Shown piece after piece: positions 1 through 7,524 of a DNA stretch of 7,524 nucleotides (position 1 is its first letter; each line of letters starts with the position of its first letter). The translations under genes and the position numbers were made by a program. Under the pieces are notes generated by a model that worked only from the letters and a program-made list of their open reading frames with translations, did not search any database and was not told the origin of the DNA. Source of the DNA: a virus (lineage: Duplodnaviria > Heunggongvirae > Uroviricota > Caudoviricetes); IMG/VR virus record IMGVR_UViG_2693429642_000014, positions 1 through 7,524 of that record. One strand, written 5' to 3'.

Positions 1-618
1 GCTGCATCTGTCCTTACGGATATCCGTGGTGGGTTTATCGAACTCATCCGCCACAGCCCCGCCCGTGTAACCACACTCATCAGAGCGGTAGGTCCACATA
101 CAGGTGTTCGCCAGCATGATACGACCGGGAAACAGCGCCCCGTCCGTCTCGGTCAGTGTGGCCAGCACAAACGAGGCCGTCATGGCTGTCAGCTGCGACA
201 TCTGCTCCACCACCCAGCGGTCACTCAGCTCCTGCTCCGGGTCCGCCTCCGGATTGCCCGCAACGAAATTCACCGCATCCAGAAAACGGGCATACACCCG
301 GCGGCGGACCACCGTGGCCCCCACCAGGCTCTGCAAATCCTCCGCCATTCCGGTGACAAGACCAAACAGATTGGACACCGTCAGCAACGGTCTGGCACTG
401 CTGCCCTTCCCGCTCATCTCAAAACCGCTACCGTCAATCGGGTATGCCTGATATTGCCGCCCCTGCCAGGTGACCGGCTCCCCTTTTTCATTCAGCTCAT
501 TGCAGAAAAAATACCGCTCACCGCCCTGCACCGTCAGGTCGATTTCCCAGAGCACCACCCGCGGTGACTGCTCTGATTTAACCGACTCGTTCAGACTTTC
601 TTCGTGAATATCCTGCAT
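1..618 (-). CDS. L: minor tail protein L (lambda gpL family); partial, C-terminal ~25 aa lie beyond the window start
   Basis: Reverse-strand translation from ATG at 618..616 gives MQDIHEESLNESVKSEQSPRVVLWEIDLTVQGGERYFFCNELNEKGEPVTWQGRQYQAYPIDGSGFEMSGKG...PGRIMLANTCMWTYRSDECGYTGGAVADEFDKPTTDIRKDRCS, open to position 1. Matches remembered lambda gpL (MQDIRQETLNE...VVLWEIDL...GERYFFCNE...KGEPVTWQGRQYQ...PGRIMLANTC.WTYR.DECGY) block for block. An alternative in-frame ATG lies at 630..628. Not in the ORF track because no stop falls inside the window. Confidence 0.85.
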   Translation of the reverse strand, partial: MQDIHEESLNESVKSEQSPRVVLWEIDLTVQGGERYFFCNELNEKGEPVTWQGRQYQAYPIDGSGFEMSGKGSSARPLLTVSNLFGLVTGMAEDLQSLVGATVVRRRVYARFLDAVNFVAGNPEADPEQELSDRWVVEQMSQLTAMTASFVLATLTETDGALFPGRIMLANTCMWTYRSDECGYTGGAVADEFDKPTTDIRKDRCS

Positions 619-630
619 ATATCCGCCCAT

Positions 631-654
631 AAAAAAGGGGCGCAGACGCGCCCC
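631..654 (-). terminator. rho-independent terminator (minus-strand sense), likely the porin moron terminator
   Basis: Plus strand reads AAAAAA GGGGCGC AGAC GCGCCCC. On the minus strand this is a perfect 7-bp GC-rich stem, 4-nt loop, then T6, about 175 nt downstream of the porin stop and directly abutting the L start region. Confidence 0.7.
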
Positions 655-749
655 GAACAATAAAAGTCCAATTTAAAATAAAACCAATAAAGGTAATAAC
701 AGAAAGTTAAATCAGCACATGCCAGATGGCAATTGCTGATCGCAGTGAC

Positions 750-772
750 CAATGAAAACTGTGTTTTCATTG
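750..772. repeat. perfect 10-bp inverted repeat (hairpin) in the porin 3' flank
   Basis: Plus 750..759 CAATGAAAAC and 763..772 GTTTTCATTG are exact reverse complements separated by 3 nt (TGT). No flanking T-run on either strand, so not a classical terminator. Confidence 0.5.
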
Positions 773-827
773 ATACAGGCCGCCTGTAAGGGCAGACGGC
801 CCGTATTTATTAACTTATCAGCAATAA

Positions 828-1991
828 TCAGAACTGATAAGTCATACCCACAGCAACGATATTATCTGTCGCAACACCGGCTTTCCGGGTAAATTCACTT
901 TCATCAATCAGGTTAATTTTATAATCAACATAGGTGGACATATTCTTGTTAAAGTAATAAGTCGCTCCGACATCAATATATTTAACCAGATCCTGATCGC
1001 CATGGTTCACACCACCAACCATAACATCCTGTCCGCGGGACTGAAGGTAGGCCAGGGACGGGCGCAGACCAAAATCAAACTGATACTGCAGTACCGCTTC
1101 AAAGTTTTGCGCTTTATCTGCAACTCCTTTATCACCAAAGGTCGTCAGATTCTGAGTTTCGGAATATGTTGTAGCCAGGTAAAGGTTGTCAGCATCGTAT
1201 TTTAGTCCGACTCCCCACATCTCAGCGTGTTTACCTTTTGCAACACTACCGGAATCAACAACGATCTGCTTTTCAGTCACTTTACCGGTTAAAGGATCAG
1301 TTTGTTCAATCGTCAGAGTACCATTCAGACCTTTTTCCTGATTATTGGTTCGGTCCGCATTAATATATGCGGCAACGATACCAAAACCTTCATATTCATA
1401 ACTGGCTGAGAAACCGTGACCATCACCATTAGCTTTCCGGAGATCACCCCGATCATTTTTACCCTGGTACTGTGCCGCAAAATTCAGGCCATCGACAAGC
1501 CCAAAGAAATCTGTATTACGATAGGTTAATACCCCGGAAGTACGGGCTGTCATGAAGTTATCGGTCTGGGTCCAGCCATCACCGCCAAACTCTGGTAATA
1601 CGTCAGTATAAGAACCAACATCGTACGCAATACCATAGTTACGACCATAATCAATGGTGCCAAACTCACCAAACTTCAGACCTGCAAATGCAAGACGGGT
1701 TTTATTACCCGCAGCACCCTCTGATTCAGCTTTATTACCAGAGAACTGATATTCCCACTGACCAAAACCAGTCAACTGGTCATTAATCTGAGTTTCACCT
1801 TTAAAGCCCAGACGTGCGTATGTCTTATCTCCATCATCCCCCTTATCACTGGAGAAATAATGGAGTGCAGTTGCACGCCCATACACATCAAGTTTATTGC
1901 CATCTTTATTGTATACTTCTGCAGCCTGCGCCCCCGCTGCAAAAATTACAGCTGCTGCCACAGCTGAAAGTGCCACTGTCATTTTTTTCAT
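828..1991 (-). CDS. outer-membrane general porin, OmpC/OmpF/PhoE superfamily, closest by eye to the NmpC/Lc/OmpD prophage-type porins; 387-aa precursor with predicted 23-aa signal peptide
   Basis: ORF with ATG start and AAGGA Shine-Dalgarno about 8 nt upstream. N-terminus [23 protein letters not shown]|[12 protein letters not shown] is a classic Sec signal with AQA cleavage site and porin mature start. Conserved porin blocks present: [108 protein letters not shown], and C-terminal YQF. Gene is markedly more AT-rich than the flanking tail genes. Confidence 0.92.
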
Positions 1992-2197: not shown

Positions 2198-2539
2198 TTA
2201 TCTTATTACCTGTTCCATCATACAACTGAAATCGCTGTACCGGGCGTTATCCGTAACACTCCACTCCCGGCACACCACCCTGACCGTCCGGTTATGTTTC
2301 GGGGGCTTCCACAAAAAAGCCCGGTAACCACCATGCCATGACAGAAACGCGGACAGTGCCTCCCGCTCAGCATCCGTTGTCACCCGAAAAACCACCTGAA
2401 AGGTCTTCAGTTGCGCATTCAGTCCTGCCGGACGACGTTGCTGATAACCGTCGCCAAACTTCACCGTCATCACCGACGGTTTCTCCGTCACCTGCATCCC
2501 TTCCCGGGGACACCAGTGAAGGGTCTTAATCTCATCCAC
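2198..2539 (-). CDS. M: minor tail protein M (lambda gpM family)
   Basis: Translation ...IKTLHWCPREGMQVTEKPSVMTVKFGDGYQQRRPAGLNAQLKTF...HGGYRAFLWKPP...VVCREWS aligns with remembered lambda gpM (MKTFRWKVKPGMDVASVPSVRKVRFGDGYSQRAPAGLNANLKTY...HGGWKSFLWTPP...VTCAKWS). Start is GTG at 2539..2537 (in-frame TGA immediately upstream), preceded by GGAGGAA 6 nt upstream, and it overlaps the H stop codon. Confidence 0.9.
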   Translation of the reverse strand: MDEIKTLHWCPREGMQVTEKPSVMTVKFGDGYQQRRPAGLNAQLKTFQVVFRVTTDAEREALSAFLSWHGGYRAFLWKPPKHNRTVRVVCREWSVTDNARYSDFSCMMEQVIR

Positions 2540-5500
2540 TCAGCATTCCTCCGTCACGACGCATGGATAACATCACCGCCTGTACCCGCTGGTCAATCAG
2601 CTGCACAAGACTGCCTGCCGCCTCCGGCCCTATCTGTCCGTTAGCCCCGTCATTCTGAATGGCGATATGGTAGACCGGGGAATACACCAGACCGGCACTG
2701 CCGTTCATACTGCCCACCGCGCGTACACCCAGCGAGCCATCCGCCGCCCGGGTCAGGGGCATTATGGCTTCAGGTCCTGCTTCCCCCATCAGCCCGGCCC
2801 CTTTTGCAAAGGCAAAGTACGTGGGCGTATCCACAATACTGTTGCTGTACGCGCTCAGGTTTGCCGAGGTATACACGCCGCCTTTTGCATTGGCCACCGC
2901 ACCGCCCAGCCAGTCACCAATGCTGCCAATAAATCCTCCTGCACCGGACATACTGTTTGCCGCCGTCTTAATTCCGTTGACAATCGCGGCATTCATAAGA
3001 ACTTTTGATATTTCCTGCAGCACTGATGAGGCCCAGTTGCGCCATTCCACTTTATTCCCGTTCAGCATCTCCGTGATGTTATTCACCATCCCTGAGATAC
3101 CCTCCGTCGCAAGCTGTGCTGCCTGTGAGGCGTAATCGGACGCATTATCCACCCAGTTACTGAGCCCCTCCTGCAAGCCTTTCTGCCAGTCCGCACGCTG
3201 CACATCCGATTCGGCATAAAAGGCTGCCTGGTCCTTAAGGCGTTCGCTCAGATACTGCGCGTTCTGTGCCCGTGCCTGTCTGTAAAAATCCTCACTGATA
3301 TCCCCGGCCTGATACTGAGACTGAAGGTCCGCATCCTTCTGGCGGAAGCTGTCGCGGATCTGCTGCAACTCCCGCATGCGTTCCCTGGCTCGTTCTCCCT
3401 GCCCGTACCCCAGCAGTTCGGCTTCATTTGATGCACGCGCAGCCACATTATCATTCTTCAGGGTCTCTTCCCGGGATCGCAACTGTTCCCGGATTTTTTG
3501 CTGGTCAATCAGGGCCGCGTTACGCAGCAGTTCCTGCTTCTGCATCTCCGTCAGGGTTTTCAGTTCGCCCTGCGCAGTCTGGTACTTCAGCTTCACCAGC
3601 TCTGTATTCTGACCCGCCAGTGCCAGTTGCTCTTTCTGCTGCTTCAGTAGCCGGGAAAAACTGTCTTCCGCTTTTTCCGTCTCTGATTTTCCACCCCGGG
3701 ATTTGGGTTTGTTCGCCTCGTTATTACGCCAGGCTTCCAGAGCATTACTGATATAACGCTGTCTCGCCTCCTGATACGAATCCCCCACAAAACCAAGGTC
3801 ATCCGCCGCATACCCCAGCCGGGCACGCTCTTTTTCCTCCCCCTTCAGTCGGGACAGGGCCAGCTCACGTTCTGTTTTTGTCAGGGCGCTCTGCTGTTTA
3901 TCATCCAGGGTGGCCTGCGGCAGCCGTAACGGTACATTCACCAGTCCCTGACGCTGCTGAAGCAGTTCATTCCCCAGCCCCAGCAGACGGTTGAATTCCG
4001 TATGCTGGCCGTTCATGACCAGCAGTGACTGATACGCTTTATTCTGCTCTGCCGCCTGCTGACGAATTAACGCCACACGGCGATCTTCCAGTCCGGCAAG
4101 CACATCCTGAATGGACTGCGCCTTTTCCTGCATCTGTGCCAGACGGGACTGCTCAACAGCAAGCTGCTCTGTTGCCTGAGCAAGCCCTTCCGTTACAGTT
4201 TTCACCGAGGTCAGATGGTTTATCATGAATCCGTCACCGGTCGTCCAGCCCGGGTTCGCCAGAACATACTGATATCCTGCGATTTTTTCCTGCAGGGATT
4301 TCACCCGACTGGCCTGTTCATCAATCAGCCGGTTCTGCTCTGTCAGCGCCGCCCGTGTTCGTCCTTCATTATCTGAGGCTTCAGGCAAAGACATTGACGG
4401 CGTTTTATGCGCGATTTCATCTATCGTCAGTGCATACTGGCGCGCTGACTCCCTGGCCTGCTCCTGATTCTGGTACAGCGTATACCATGCTGCTGCCCCC
4501 AGCATCACCAGTCCGGGTACGCCACCAACCAGTCCCAACGCACCAGTCATCAGACGTGAGCCCACCGCCGTTGTACTGTTCAGCGCATTCTGGGCTGCGG
4601 TTCTGGCAGCAATATTTCTGTTCAGGCGTTCCTGTGTGGCCGCCAGACGGGCTTCTGCAGCAATCTGCATCTCCGTCCCGCGGGCTGCCGCCACAGCCTG
4701 CTGTGCACGGTACACGGCTGCCCTTGCCCGCGCCGTGGCAATCTGCGTCCCCCTGAGCTGTGCTTCCGCCAGTGCCACTTCATTACGTGCTGCCGTCACA
4801 AGTCCTGCCGTGGCAGACACCGCTCCGGAGGCCATATTGCCAAAGTACCGGGCAACCCCGACGGCAACCAGCGCACCCACGGCTGTTGCCACATTATCAA
4901 TCTGTCCGGCAACACCGTTCAGCACGCCGGAGAGCGTTTTTGTCACCCCGCTGGCCTCATTCGCGCCACCCACCCAGGCCATAAAGGCGTTTTCCACCTT
5001 TGTGATACTACCGGAAACCGTTTCCGGCATGGCCGCATATTCATCACGCAATACCCCCAGCTGGCTGATTAACGCAGGGACCACTTTATCCGCCGTCAGT
5101 TTGCCGTCGTCCGCCATCGCCTTAAGGTCTTTACGGGCCACGCCCATACCCGCAGCCAGTGCACGTACGATCCGATCTCCGCTTTCATTGACCGAATTAA
5201 ATTCCTCACCGCGTAACACCCCCTGTGCCAGCGCCTGGCTGAACTGGGTGATCACCGAGCCCGCCTCTGCCGTACTGGCACCGGAGATTTTCAGCCCCGT
5301 GGAAATGGCCTCCGTCACCTTCAGTACATCACCGGCACTGTAGCCATATTCACGCATTGAGGCTGCCGAGCGGGCAAACAGGGCCGCATTATCTGAAAAT
5401 GCCGTGCCCGTCCGCTGGCTGATATCCATCAGCACTTTCTGTGATGACGAAAATTCATCGGATGACTGCGACGCCTGTTTCAGTCGGGCATTCACGGAAC

Positions 5501-5774
5501 TCCATTCATCGGCCAGAGAAATCAGGTGCCCGGTGGCAAAGGCACCTGCAAATGCCCCCGCCGTTCCGGCAACTGAAGCGCGGATTTCCGTCAACTGGCT
5601 GTTCAGCTCAGCCAGGGCGCGTCGCTGCTCCCGGGCGACTGCGGCAGCCTGACGCCCGCCATTCTGCAGGGTCCGGTAATATTCACTGCCCATGCGGGCA
5701 GCCCGCTGGATCTCCGACTGGAATGACTGCGAATTTGCCGAAATTTTGATAATCAGTTCACGTAACGTCGCCAT
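2532..5774 (-). CDS. H: tail length tape measure protein (lambda gpH family), 1080 aa
   Basis: Long Ala/Gln/Arg-rich, coiled-coil-type ORF with an internal hydrophobic segment (GALGLVGGVPGLVMLGAAAW). C-terminal region ...NWASSVLQEISKVLMNAAIVNGIKTA...IAIQNDGANGQIGPEAAGSLVQLIDQRVQAVMLSMRRDGGMLSG aligns with the remembered lambda gpH C-terminus (...VVINNDGTNGQIGPAALKAVYDMARKGARDEIQTQMRDGGLFSG). ATG at 5774 is preceded by GGAGAAAGGTGA. Sits between the G/T chaperones and M as in lambda. Confidence 0.95.
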   Translation of the reverse strand: MATLRELIIKISANSQSFQSEIQRAARMGSEYYRTLQNGGRQAAAVAREQRRALAELNSQLTEIRASVAGTAGAFAGAFATGHLISLADEWSSVNARLKQASQSSDEFSSSQKVLMDISQRTGTAFSDNAALFARSAASMREYGYSAGDVLKVTEAISTGLKISGASTAEAGSVITQFSQALAQGVLRGEEFNSVNESGDRIVRALAAGMGVARKDLKAMADDGKLTADKVVPALISQLGVLRDEYAAMPETVSGSITKVENAFMAWVGGANEASGVTKTLSGVLNGVAGQIDNVATAVGALVAVGVARYFGNMASGAVSATAGLVTAARNEVALAEAQLRGTQIATARARAAVYRAQQAVAAARGTEMQIAAEARLAATQERLNRNIAARTAAQNALNSTTAVGSRLMTGALGLVGGVPGLVMLGAAAWYTLYQNQEQARESARQYALTIDEIAHKTPSMSLPEASDNEGRTRAALTEQNRLIDEQASRVKSLQEKIAGYQYVLANPGWTTGDGFMINHLTSVKTVTEGLAQATEQLAVEQSRLAQMQEKAQSIQDVLAGLEDRRVALIRQQAAEQNKAYQSLLVMNGQHTEFNRLLGLGNELLQQRQGLVNVPLRLPQATLDDKQQSALTKTERELALSRLKGEEKERARLGYAADDLGFVGDSYQEARQRYISNALEAWRNNEANKPKSRGGKSETEKAEDSFSRLLKQQKEQLALAGQNTELVKLKYQTAQGELKTLTEMQKQELLRNAALIDQQKIREQLRSREETLKNDNVAARASNEAELLGYGQGERARERMRELQQIRDSFRQKDADLQSQYQAGDISEDFYRQARAQNAQYLSERLKDQAAFYAESDVQRADWQKGLQEGLSNWVDNASDYASQAAQLATEGISGMVNNITEMLNGNKVEWRNWASSVLQEISKVLMNAAIVNGIKTAANSMSGAGGFIGSIGDWLGGAVANAKGGVYTSANLSAYSNSIVDTPTYFAFAKGAGLMGEAGPEAIMPLTRAADGSLGVRAVGSMNGSAGLVYSPVYHIAIQNDGANGQIGPEAAGSLVQLIDQRVQAVMLSMRRDGGMLSG

Positions 5775-5821: not shown

Positions 5822-6136
5822 TCATGACTGTGCTGCAAAGCTCAGCGCGTCTTCCAGCGCCGCAAACGGATCCACCTCCGGCTTATCCTCATCCTCGCCC
5901 CAGCAGAGCATGGCGTCCTTCAGTGCAACATTCATCCCCTGTGCCCCGAAAACCGCTTTCACGATCTGTGCATTACGGATATCCCCGCGCTCATCACCCA
6001 GCGGGGATACCCTGTCGAACTCCATCCACATCATCGCCTCGCTCGCACTCAGGCTGTGCCGCAGTTCGGATAACGTGCGCCCCAGACGGAGCGCAAGTCG
6101 CATCAGAAAGCGTATTTCCGGGCGGGCTACTTTTTT
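5822..6136 (-). CDS. T: T portion of the G-T tail assembly chaperone fusion, reached by programmed -1 frameshift from G
   Basis: The -1 frame relative to G is open from the slippery heptamer through to TGA at 5824..5822. Shifting at A AAA AAG gives ...KKVARPEIRFLMRLALRLGRTLSELRHSLSASEAMMWMEFD..., continuous with the 93-aa ORF in the track (5822..6103). Position between G and the tape measure gene matches lambda G/G-T. Confidence 0.8.
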   Translation of the reverse strand, partial: KKVARPEIRFLMRLALRLGRTLSELRHSLSASEAMMWMEFDRVSPLGDERGDIRNAQIVKAVFGAQGMNVALKDAMLCWGEDEDKPEVDPFAALEDALSFAAQS

Positions 6137-6501
6137 CTGGCCGCCTCTCCATCGGCGATCAGATCCAGTGCCTGACGCAGCAACCGGGCATGTACCGGAC
6201 CATAGACGACCAGCACCTGCTCCCGATCGTCCGCAGTGAACACCCGCTGCAGATCCGTATCACACAGCACATCGCAGAACAGCGTCACATCCGCTTCCAG
6301 ATTACGGCGGGTTTTCGCCCCCCCCGACAGAGTTTCGTCACCCGTATCACCGTCATTAAGCACTTCCCGCCACAGATACCAGGCCTCTGCCGAAGGTTCC
6401 CGCAGCACCACGCTGACATTTTCCCATTCAGGCACCCGCACCGTTTTATGGCGAAACCCCGACAGTCTGGCCAGTGCCAGTGTTTTCAGATCCTTTTTCA
6501 T
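6127..6501 (-). CDS. G: tail assembly chaperone G (lambda gpG position)
   Basis: ORF ends ...GEAARKK* with the slippery site at its 3' end. I prefer the ATG at 6501..6499 (MKKDLKTLALARL..., GGGGA Shine-Dalgarno about 9 nt upstream, 14 nt after the V stop) over the track start at 6549, which would overlap V by 34 nt. Acidic, small protein as expected for gpG-like chaperones. Call rests on position and the frameshift architecture. Confidence 0.75.
   Translation of the reverse strand: MKKDLKTLALARLSGFRHKTVRVPEWENVSVVLREPSAEAWYLWREVLNDGDTGDETLSGGAKTRRNLEADVTLFCDVLCDTDLQRVFTADDREQVLVVYGPVHARLLRQALDLIADGEAARKK
6130..6136 (-). other. programmed -1 ribosomal frameshift slippery heptamer A AAA AAG
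   Basis: Plus 6130..6136 is CTTTTTT, i.e. A AAA AAG on the minus strand in the G zero frame. These are the last two sense codons before the G stop (TAG at 6129..6127). Same heptamer class as E. coli dnaX. Confidence 0.8.
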
Positions 6502-6515
6502 GATGACTCGTCCCC

Positions 6516-7247
6516 TTATCCGGCTGCTGCGCTCACAGTCACGGTGCATTCAACAGACGTCACACTCTGTGCCCTCTCTGCCGAATCGGTCACCACGCAG
6601 GTATATTTCCCCGCATCGGCGGACTGCGCGTTTGGCTTACTGAAGGTGTCAGCCGTCTGCCCCTCAACCGGCTGACCGTCCTTCTTCCAGGCGTATTTAT
6701 ACGGCGGCGTTCCCCCGTTGGCACTGACTGACATTGTCAGCAGCGCACCGGTATTCACGGTAAGTGTTTTATCCAGATTTTTCACAAACGCCAGCGGTAC
6801 CACAAAGGACACCGGTTTGCCTTTCAGACGCAGTGAAAACGTTGCTGCCACCACGCCGTTGGTACCGGATGACCAGGTGTGCTGACGCACTTCCGCCAGG
6901 AATTTAAAGCCCTTTCCGGACGGAAACTGCACCTTAAACGCATACAATGAGTCATTGTCATAGGCATCACGCAGGGCATTCTGGGCCTGATTCAGATAAA
7001 AATTACCCGACATGGAAATCTCGGACGATGCGCCCAGACCGTTGATGTTCTCCTGCTCCGTGGAGCAGAGCGTGGTCACATCAATATCCTGTTTCTGACC
7101 GGCGGTGAACTGGACTTCCTTGATGGAGCAGTCCAGGCGCAGATATTCCGCCTTCTCCATAGTTTCAGCAGTCGCCGGGGCAGATGAAATCATCACCTGC
7201 GTCAGCTGTGAACGTTCATACAAAGCAGACATTCGTAACCGGCTCAT
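6516..7247 (-). CDS. V: major tail (tube) protein with C-terminal Ig-like domain (lambda gpV position)
   Basis: First gene of the tail block, immediately upstream of G. The C-terminal ~80 aa (LTVNTGALLTMSVSANGGTPPYKYAWKKDGQPVEGQTADTFSKPNAQSADAGKYTCVVTD...) has the hallmarks of a bacterial Ig-like domain, as found at the C-terminus of gpV. No recognisable identity to lambda V in the N-terminal domain. Start is uncertain: ATG 7247 has GGAGG about 20 nt upstream (too far), with alternative ATGs at 7232 and further in. Confidence 0.7.
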   Translation of the reverse strand: MSRLRMSALYERSQLTQVMISSAPATAETMEKAEYLRLDCSIKEVQFTAGQKQDIDVTTLCSTEQENINGLGASSEISMSGNFYLNQAQNALRDAYDNDSLYAFKVQFPSGKGFKFLAEVRQHTWSSGTNGVVAATFSLRLKGKPVSFVVPLAFVKNLDKTLTVNTGALLTMSVSANGGTPPYKYAWKKDGQPVEGQTADTFSKPNAQSADAGKYTCVVTDSAERAQSVTSVECTVTVSAAAG

Positions 7248-7288
7248 TTAAACCGTCTGGTCTGTTTCCTCCGGCTCTACAAAAATAA

Positions 7289-7310
7289 TGTCCATCATTT
7301 TTAATGGACA
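7289..7310. repeat. 7-bp inverted repeat TGTCCAT(N8)ATGGACA just upstream of the transposase-like ORF (possible IS terminus or operator)
   Basis: Plus 7289..7295 TGTCCAT and 7304..7310 ATGGACA are reverse complements. Begins with TG, as IS termini often do, and lies 8 bp before the ATG at 7318. Confidence 0.3.
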
Positions 7311-7317
7311 CTATCGT

Positions 7318-7524
7318 ATGAAACACCGGACCTGGATCACTGAAGCTTTACGTCTTCACTTTGAAGAACATTTACCCCGGGTTGTGGCCGGGCGTCGCCT
7401 GGGTGTACCAAAATCAACAGTTTGTAGTATGTTCGTGCGCTTTCGGAGAGCTGGTCTTTCGTGGCCTTTGCCCGCAGGCATGTCGGAGCAGGAACTTGAT
7501 GCCTGCCTTTACGGACAATTTTCC
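7318..7524 (+). CDS. partial ORF (69 codons, open to window end): HTH N-terminus resembling IS21-family IstA transposase
   Basis: Translation MKHRTWITEALRLHFEEHLPRVVAGRRLGVPKSTVCSMFVRFRRAGLSWPLPAGMSEQELDACLYGQFS. The pattern (basic HTH with STV, then RA.AAGLSWPLP....EL...L) matches what I remember of IS21-family IstA N-termini, e.g. IS408-like ...STV.EYLRRAKAAG..WPLP..LDDAALEARLF. Divergent from the tail operon. No BLAST was possible. Confidence 0.5.
   Translation, partial: MKHRTWITEALRLHFEEHLPRVVAGRRLGVPKSTVCSMFVRFRRAGLSWPLPAGMSEQELDACLYGQFS

Follow-up and report, generated by a model that had tools for sequence, protein, structure and literature searches.

The window analysed here, a stretch of 7,524 nucleotides, carries phage tail genes on the minus strand, and immediately before the major tail gene V there is a divergent reading frame that a preliminary description had assigned, from its motifs, to an IS21-family IstA transposase. 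The locus raises the question of which element this frame belongs to, where the element begins, and whether the tail genes next to it could still be used. The best explanation, which we hold with high confidence, is that positions 7235-7524 are the left end of an ISCro1-type element of the IS66 family, located in the spacer between the genes gp17 and V. The features of the window are as follows.

1-618, minus strand: minor tail gene L, first part
828-1991, minus strand: OmpC-like porin gene
2198-2539, minus strand: M
2532-5774, minus strand: tape measure gene
5822-6103, minus strand: T
6127 to about 6501, minus strand: tail assembly chaperone G
6516-7232, minus strand: major tail gene V, lambda V-like, 238 aa, with a C-terminal Ig-like domain
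7227-7234: 8-bp target AGACATTC, V-proximal copy, containing the V start codon (AGA-CAT-TC)
7233-7247, minus strand: five-codon V extension MSRLR, mostly IS-end sequence, not native
7235-7524, plus strand: left end of the ISCro1-type IS66-family element, 290 bp, cut by the window end
7235-7258: left terminal inverted repeat GTAACCGGCTCATTTAAACCGTCT, of which 17 of 24 positions match the reverse-complemented right end GTAAGCGACTCGTCAGAACCGTAT of the copy in locus L001
7248-7310, minus strand: short frame CPLKMMDIIFVEPEETDQTV with its stop (given in the preliminary description as MMDIIFVEPEETDQTV with its stop), antisense to the left end of the IS
7285-7314: inverted repeat ATAATGTCCAT / ATGGACACTAT within the IS, overlapping the start region of tnpA
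7288-7524, plus strand: 5' part of tnpA, IS66 accessory protein, 225 aa when complete (PGAP start at 7288)

The minus-strand order V, G, T, tape measure, M and start of L is that of a lambda-like siphovirus tail operon, and its tail genes are present as intact ORFs. The V protein matched the major tail protein family phrog_158 (E=2e-116) and contained the Pfam domains Ig_2/Ig_3 and Phage_tail_2. The V region showed about 96% identity with long-tailed Stx1a/Stx2c-converting phages and phage YYZ-2008, and the entire tail region showed 95-97% identity with prophages of many E. coli genomes. Many contigs were found to encode the porin or the 238-aa V protein, and the IS was absent from all those listed. 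Exact-protein searches with the tape-measure protein and with the 243-aa V extended by the IS gave no match.

Boundary and target site of the element

The comparison with intact relatives that the preliminary description had proposed showed both which gene normally precedes V and where the foreign DNA begins. In the relatives, V is preceded by the gene of tail completion protein gp17, with the C-terminus ...ATLEFQVTV, about 67 bp upstream; gp17 of 14 relatives belongs to PF11367 and to the tail terminator family phrog_347, and the window has the IS at that position. In all 14 uninterrupted relatives, the empty site reads ...CAAAGCAGACATTC followed directly by TGCCTCCTGATAATAAAAAACCCGC..., and in the window the same ...CAAAGCAGACATTC is followed by GTAACCGGCTCATTTAAACC...; that is, to the right of the target AGACATTC the relatives continue with TGCCTCCTGATAATAAAAAACCCGC and the window with GTAACCGGCTCATTT. 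The alignments of the tail genes with E. coli genomes, phage records and the loci that we fetched all stop at 7234. From these alignment ends and the empty sites, we placed the start of the element at 7235, where it reads GTAACCGG... and begins with GTAACC. The element was therefore inserted 2 bp before the V start codon, and tnpA is divergent from V.

The octamer AGACATTC is single-copy in the 14 uninterrupted relatives, in which TGCCTCCTGATAAT follows. The search for terminal repeats and a target duplication, also proposed earlier, gave the left terminal repeat at 7235-7258 and the left target copy within the window; the second copy is outside it, and the duplication on both sides was seen in L001, which is the prophage of E. 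coli Z1322HEC0009 (NZ_CP148570). Six complete copies of the element were compared, each with a length of 2,699 bp, with the ends GTAACCGG...GCTTAC and with 8-bp direct repeats (AGACATTC, CAGCTGTG, GGCTTTTC, AGATAGTC, GATACAGT and GATTTAGC). The string 'aaagca', shared by the flanks of four of the six, was considered as a target preference and rejected as evidence, because the copies had been picked by BLAST extension into the flank of the window.

An inverted repeat close to the in-frame TAG had been noticed before, and it is present. Its arms (7285-7295 and 7304-7314) are 11 nt long and 91% complementary, and as RNA it folds better than 200 of 200 shuffled sequences (z = -3.3). The proposal that its part beginning with TG (7289-7310) forms the end of an IS was rejected, as this palindrome is located about 50 bp inside the element end that the empty sites fix at GTAA... 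(7235), and the true terminal repeat is 7235-7258. The internal repeat might, as one possibility, act on tnpA translation.

Family of the element and the N-terminal domain of TnpA

The divergent frame was found as described, about 70 bp upstream of the first tail gene: from its ATG at 7318, the distance is 71 bp to ATG 7247 and 86 bp to ATG 7232. It reads MKHRTWITEALRLHFEEHLPRVVAGRRLGVPKSTVCSMFVRFRRAGLSWPLPAGMSEQELDACLYGQFS, includes ...VRFRRAGLSWPLPAGMSEQELDACLY... and exits the window on the plus strand; the helix-turn-helix and the AGLSWPLP motif (7450-7473) were correctly recognized. There is also an in-frame ATG at 7288, and the alternative start at 7318 stands two residues before the first residue aligned by the NCBIfam model.

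Megablast of 7200-7524 gave matches in 2,760 E. coli records and 1,229 plasmids, and the best match was at least 99% identical in 2,067 of the E. coli records. In nearly every row listed, from E. coli and plasmids, the matched CDS was annotated as 'IS66-like element accessory protein TnpA'. The IS end of the window differs at one of 290 bases from the copy in locus L003 and at two of 290 from the copy in L001. The translated fragment is identical over 79 aa to WP_001339397.1 of L003, whose TnpC is named 'IS66-like element ISCro1 family transposase' by PGAP; the name ISCro1 rests on this PGAP label of near-identical copies, and IS679 and ISCro1 are not separated by sequence.

Protein models gave the same family. 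The 79-aa fragment matched NCBIfam NF038385 (IS66_access_TnpA) with E=1.5e-26 and 93 bits, residues 13-78 aligning to model positions 1-66; the score is under the 150-bit cutoff only because 66 of the 190 model positions fall inside the window. The 225-aa homologue at the same junction in L001 reached 293.9 bits (E=4e-88) against this cutoff. The fragment also matched the transposase family phrog_2422 (E=3e-23). In all six complete copies, tnpA is followed by the IS66 genes tnpB and tnpC, and in L001 these were recognized as PF05717 TnpB_IS66 (5e-40) and as a 523-aa protein with PF03050 DDE_Tnp_IS66 (1e-103) and NF033517 (3e-141). Pfam search of the full-length TnpA found only HTH_Tnp_1 (residues 102-159) and HTH_23, with no rve/DDE domain; for the 79-aa fragment there was no Pfam match at E<=0.01, with HTH_23 and Sigma70_r4 weak at about 0.05. 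A PDB sequence search with the full TnpA returned His-tag artefacts only.

The earlier reading, in which the frame is a fragment of IS21-family IstA, with the TG palindrome as the repeat at its end and the short frame on the minus strand as a remnant of the upstream gene, had a real basis in the first 60 residues, which do resemble IstA. When the 69-aa fragment was searched against 1.84 billion representative proteins, 471 matches were found at E<=0.001; of 53 that we scanned, 52 matched the IS66 TnpA model over its N-terminal part, and 37 matched the IS21 transposase model as well. With P0144, a 511-aa IS21 transposase (NF033546, E=6e-82), BLASTP gave 44% identity over 59 aa (E=4e-15), including the motif RFRxxGLSWPLPA, and the alignment is RFRASGLSWPLPADMADSELERRLF against RFRRAGLSWPLPAGMSEQELDACLY. 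However, neither the fragment nor the 225-aa protein matched the IS21 model NF033546 at E<=1, whereas the IS66 TnpA model matched; the full-length protein is without the rve/DDE domain, TnpB and TnpC follow it instead of IstB, and the short frame is IS DNA. We therefore give the IstA reading almost no chance. The word fragment was also not borne out, since the window merely ends 290 bp into an element that is complete in the only genome with the same junction. What held is the more general claim, that a transposable element stands immediately before V and cuts it off from its usual upstream genes and signals.

Judged from sequence, the HTH/GLSWPLP domain of TnpA and the N-terminal region of many IS21 IstA proteins are homologous, and the domain is without a Pfam family of its own. 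Because this module occurs in ISCro1-type TnpA as well as in a subgroup of IstA, the first 70 residues alone leave the family ambiguous, and the shared domain can mislead motif-based calls on short fragments.

V start codon and expected effect on tail formation

The native V start is ATG 7232-7230 (CAT at 7230-7232 on the plus strand), in agreement with the PGAP annotation 'major tail subunit' in the relatives, and the identical 238-aa V protein, with its start at 7232, was found on at least eight other contigs. ATG 7247 was rejected as the native start, as the bases 7235-7247 are IS DNA and the relatives use 7232. A GGAGG lies 20 nt upstream of ATG 7247, too distant to serve that ATG. In strain ES5, where the IS is inside V, PGAP took the same IS-borne ATG as the V start.

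The short minus-strand frame, limited by the in-frame TAG at 7313-7311 and by the TAA at 7250-7248 that abuts ATG 7247, had been rightly observed, together with both of its stops, and its interpretation as the end of the gene originally preceding V was rejected: the frame, ending ...EETDQTV before the stop, is wholly inside the IS and unrelated to the gp17 C-terminus. It is a chance frame, a spurious ORF antisense to the IS left end. For annotation, the element should accordingly be named IS66/ISCro1, the V start should be set at 7232 and not at 7247, and the adjoining small ORF should be taken as spurious.

Because the insertion lies 2 bp before the V start, the native AGGAGG Shine-Dalgarno sequence, the upstream hairpin and all the head and head-tail joining genes would now lie about 2.7 kb away, beyond the window. 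After the insertion, the 25 nt preceding ATG 7232 consist of IS sequence plus GA. The native leader ATTATCAGGAGGCAGA-ATG forms a duplex with the anti-Shine-Dalgarno sequence of -10.3 kcal/mol; the best duplex of the window leader GAGCCGGTTACGA-ATG is irregular, at -4.0 kcal/mol, and this leader has no usable Shine-Dalgarno sequence. Translation initiation of V is thus expected to be strongly reduced. V would presumably also be transcribed less, since late transcription would first have to read through 2.7 kb of IS in antisense. A promoter scan of the IS end gave no sigma-70-like promoter directed outward, and terminator-like sites inside the IS were in no excess over shuffled sequences, so these scans allow no argument on polarity either way. 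As V has lost its ribosome-binding site, a tail-defective prophage is plausible, and the prophage probably cannot make normal tails despite the intact tail ORFs in the window. Some V protein could be produced by leaderless-like or weak initiation, or by coupling to ATG 7247. Tools that judge intactness from gene content would score this tail operon as complete, though V is probably not made.

From these data we propose the following course. An ISCro1-type element (complete length 2,699 bp, with tnpA, tnpB and tnpC) would have transposed into the spacer between gp17, which is lambda U-like, and V; the recipient would have been a lambdoid prophage related to the long-tailed Stx-converting phages, and AGACATTC, the 8-bp target, would have been duplicated in the process. 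Beyond the window one would expect the remainder of the IS and after it gp17, as in Z1322HEC0009. Such a simple insertion predicts an IS end ...GGTTCTGACGAGTCGCTTAC, then AGACATTC TGCCTCCTGATAATAAAAAACCCGC, with gp17 on the minus strand; this far junction may also be written as ...GACGAGTCGCTTAC, then AGACATTC TGCCTCC and gp17.

Related insertions and comparison with known systems

The junction was detected in one of 5,426 complete genomes, that of strain Z1322HEC0009, which has the identical left junction, a complete IS and AGACATTC on both sides; beyond the IS there follow gp17, an HK97-gp10-like gene and the head closure, connector, portal and capsid genes. The exact 35-nt junction pattern had no match in GTDB species-representative genomes or JGI metagenome contigs. 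The tail genes of the window and of Z1322HEC0009 differ by about 7%, and the porin gene is absent from the latter; for these reasons the two are not the same prophage, and the far side of the window's element need not match. In the 200 bp before the junction there are two differences only, at 7127 and 7161. In the Z1322HEC0009 prophage, another IS66-family element stands between the capsid genes and the terminase genes, and several genes are frameshifted; in locus L007, an internal deletion reaches from the terminase region to within the tape-measure gene.

In strain ES5, the ISCro1-type element is inserted 24 bp further into V, in the orientation seen in the window and with the target duplication CAGCTGTG, and this insertion is clearly independent of that in the window and Z1322HEC0009. 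In ES5 as in Z1322HEC0009 the insertion is a simple one: the element is complete, and the target is present on either side of it. The landing site between gp17 and V adjoins a terminator-like hairpin, and a segment of 24 bp there holds two or three insertions, which share one orientation.

Two further readings accept the ISCro1-type element and differ in its history. The IS end might mark the breakpoint of a rearrangement or deletion, or be truncated, the prophage then being a tail-only remnant. The element is numerous enough to serve as a substrate for IS-IS recombination (median 2, up to 18 matches to the IS end per E. coli genome), prophages of the same type are often decayed, as by the second IS and frameshifts of Z1322HEC0009 and the deletion of L007, and the right end of the window's copy lies beyond the window end, which comes after 290 bp. 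But the left side is a clean transposition junction at a target that is verified as an 8-bp duplication in Z1322HEC0009, both known insertions in the spacer and the 5' region of V are simple and complete with both target copies present, and the tail ORFs of the window are undamaged, so we regard this reading as quite improbable and retain the simple insertion.

It is conceivable, though we incline against it, that the window and Z1322HEC0009 were hit independently at the identical target, which together with ES5 would make the region a hot spot of ISCro1. The 7% between their tail genes, the porin gene present in one and absent from the other, and the two differences in 290 bases between their IS copies would fit, as would the independent ES5 insertion 24 bp away; an ISCro1 site in the afa/dr region has also been described as an IS hot spot (PMC8764528). 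On the other hand, the divergence lies mostly far from the junction, a pattern consistent with a single insertion and later mosaic recombination, a process often seen among lambdoid prophages; a hot spot can hardly be claimed from three observations; and survivorship may play a part, as insertions that inactivate a prophage may be tolerated or favoured. More speculative, and in our view unlikely, is that the gp17-V junction is a preferred site of ISCro1, or that the N-terminal extension of TnpA was acquired from, or is shared with, IstA. If true, a preferred site would mean a recurrent disarming of the tails of Stx-type prophages while the rest is kept, and the extension of about 100 aa that distinguishes ISCro1-type TnpA from shorter IS66 TnpA would be a DNA-binding or regulatory module common to two IS families that are otherwise unrelated.

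Taken as the single insertion of a known IS, the event is an ordinary one of an already-known kind. ISCro1 was first catalogued in Citrobacter rodentium ICC168 and is common on chromosomes and plasmids of E. coli. It has been reported as an expanded IS in C. rodentium, with 24 copies, and the annotation of this species lists IS679 and ISCro1 as separate elements (PMC3072379). In E. coli ST131, ISCro1 upstream of afaA reduced afaA transcription by 2.5 log2-fold, and the length given there is 2,824 bp (PMC8764528), against 2,699 bp in the copies measured here. With the copies labelled ISCro1, which have a length of 2,699 bp and an 8-bp duplication, the part of the element in the window shares the left end and the TnpA N-terminus; no difference was seen in the element itself, and only its insertion site, 2 bp before the V start, is particular.

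The IS66 family was reportedly defined by Han and colleagues in 2001 and Gourbeyre and colleagues in 2010, with IS679 of the EPEC plasmid pB171 as a member. Its hallmarks are the genes tnpA-tnpB-tnpC, a length of about 2.7 kb, imperfect repeats of about 20-25 bp that start GTAAGCG-like, and an 8-bp duplication. Another member of the family was described with an 8-bp repeat and GTAAC/GTGAC ends, in a paper that cites both of these studies. The complete copies compared here likewise share with IS679 and IS66 the three genes, the length of about 2.7 kb, the imperfect repeats of about 25 bp and the 8-bp duplication.

Terminal inverted repeats of the IS21 family begin with 5'-TG. The ISCro1-type element has the N-terminal HTH/GLSWPLP domain in common with that family, but its complete copies are without the rve domain and IstB, its ends begin with GTAA instead of TG, and the remainder of its TnpA is the HTH_Tnp_1 typical of accessory proteins of IS66 and IS3.

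IS insertions contribute to the decay of lambdoid prophages in pathogenic E. coli, for example IS629 in O157 prophages. The present locus adds one more multicopy IS in the late operon of such a prophage, here a relative of Stx1a/Stx2c phages; it is unusual in that the coding sequence is untouched and the ribosome-binding site is removed. Unlike the interruption of a coding sequence, the IS here falls between the start codon and the ribosome-binding site.

The major tail gene and its upstream spacer

All uninterrupted relatives have a GC hairpin with a T-run after it, resembling a terminator, between gp17, the tail completion gene, and the major tail gene V, immediately 5′ of the V Shine-Dalgarno sequence. 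The insertion point of the ISCro1-type element is a few bases downstream of this hairpin, which was located in two relative loci (L001, from E. coli Z1322HEC0009, and L002):

L001 14761-14779 and L002 ~16240-16262, outside the window: gp17-V hairpin and T-run (AACCCGCCGCGTGCGGGTT TTTTATTATC, gene strand)

E. coli ES5 (NZ_CP133871) carries another ISCro1 insertion (L003 6069-8783), independent of that in the window and 24 bp further into V. It has the same orientation as in the window and a target duplication of CAGCTGTG, and PGAP places the start of V in ES5 at an ATG provided by the IS end, giving a fusion N-terminus. Taken together, the two sites hint that this region is a hot spot or that inactivation of the tail is selected for.

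The gene following V is predicted as:

Window 6127-6549, minus strand: tail assembly chaperone, longest ORF of 140 aa, with a 34-bp overlap with the end of V

Translation of the chaperone probably begins at the ATG near 6501, because the protein is annotated as 124 aa (375 nt) in relatives. T (5822-6103) comes next after the chaperone, the arrangement that would be expected of a putative G/T frameshift pair.

Cargo genes in the tail operon

The porin gene is inserted cargo between the tail genes M and L, and the features of this interval are as follows:

Window 828-1991, minus strand: OmpC-like porin gene, 387 aa (Porin_1/Porin_4; phrog_410; PGAP 'porin OmpC')
Window 619-827 and 1992-2197: non-coding flanks of the porin gene

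In some relatives (L001, L003, L010-14 and L017) the porin is absent and M directly adjoins L. Within the contig collection, 478 indexed blocks contain the identical porin protein. The porin-carrying prophages L004-L009, L015 and L016 contain additional tail-operon cargo downstream of L:

L-K interval, opposite strand or inserted block: ClpP-like protease, Arc-like repressors and P22-type antirepressor
I-J interval: Cu/Zn superoxide dismutase gene (Sod_Cu)

Possible decay in related prophages

The Z1322HEC0009 prophage contained a second IS66-family element (ISEc23 family; L001 21133-23549) in the capsid-terminase interval. Since its portal, tape-measure and J genes carry frameshift annotation, either this prophage is decayed or its assembly contains indel errors. 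In the gut metagenome contig L007 (8207-9460), there is almost nothing between the small terminase gene and the end of the tape-measure gene, after which M follows. This arrangement points to a deletion of about 13 kb, by which the head genes and most of the tail genes were lost.

N-terminal domain of the IS66 accessory protein TnpA

The N-terminal domain of the ISCro1-type IS66 TnpA (window 7318-7524) comprises about 65 aa with an HTH and a GLSWPLP motif. Pfam contains no model of this domain, and a limited literature search on it gave no result. Many IstA transposases of the IS21 family have a homologous N-terminal region; the proteins considered include P0144, a full 511-aa IstA, and P0061, P0115 and others. 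The IS21 model was matched by 37 of the 53 representative homologues of the domain, and comparison with a full IstA gave 44% identity over 59 aa.
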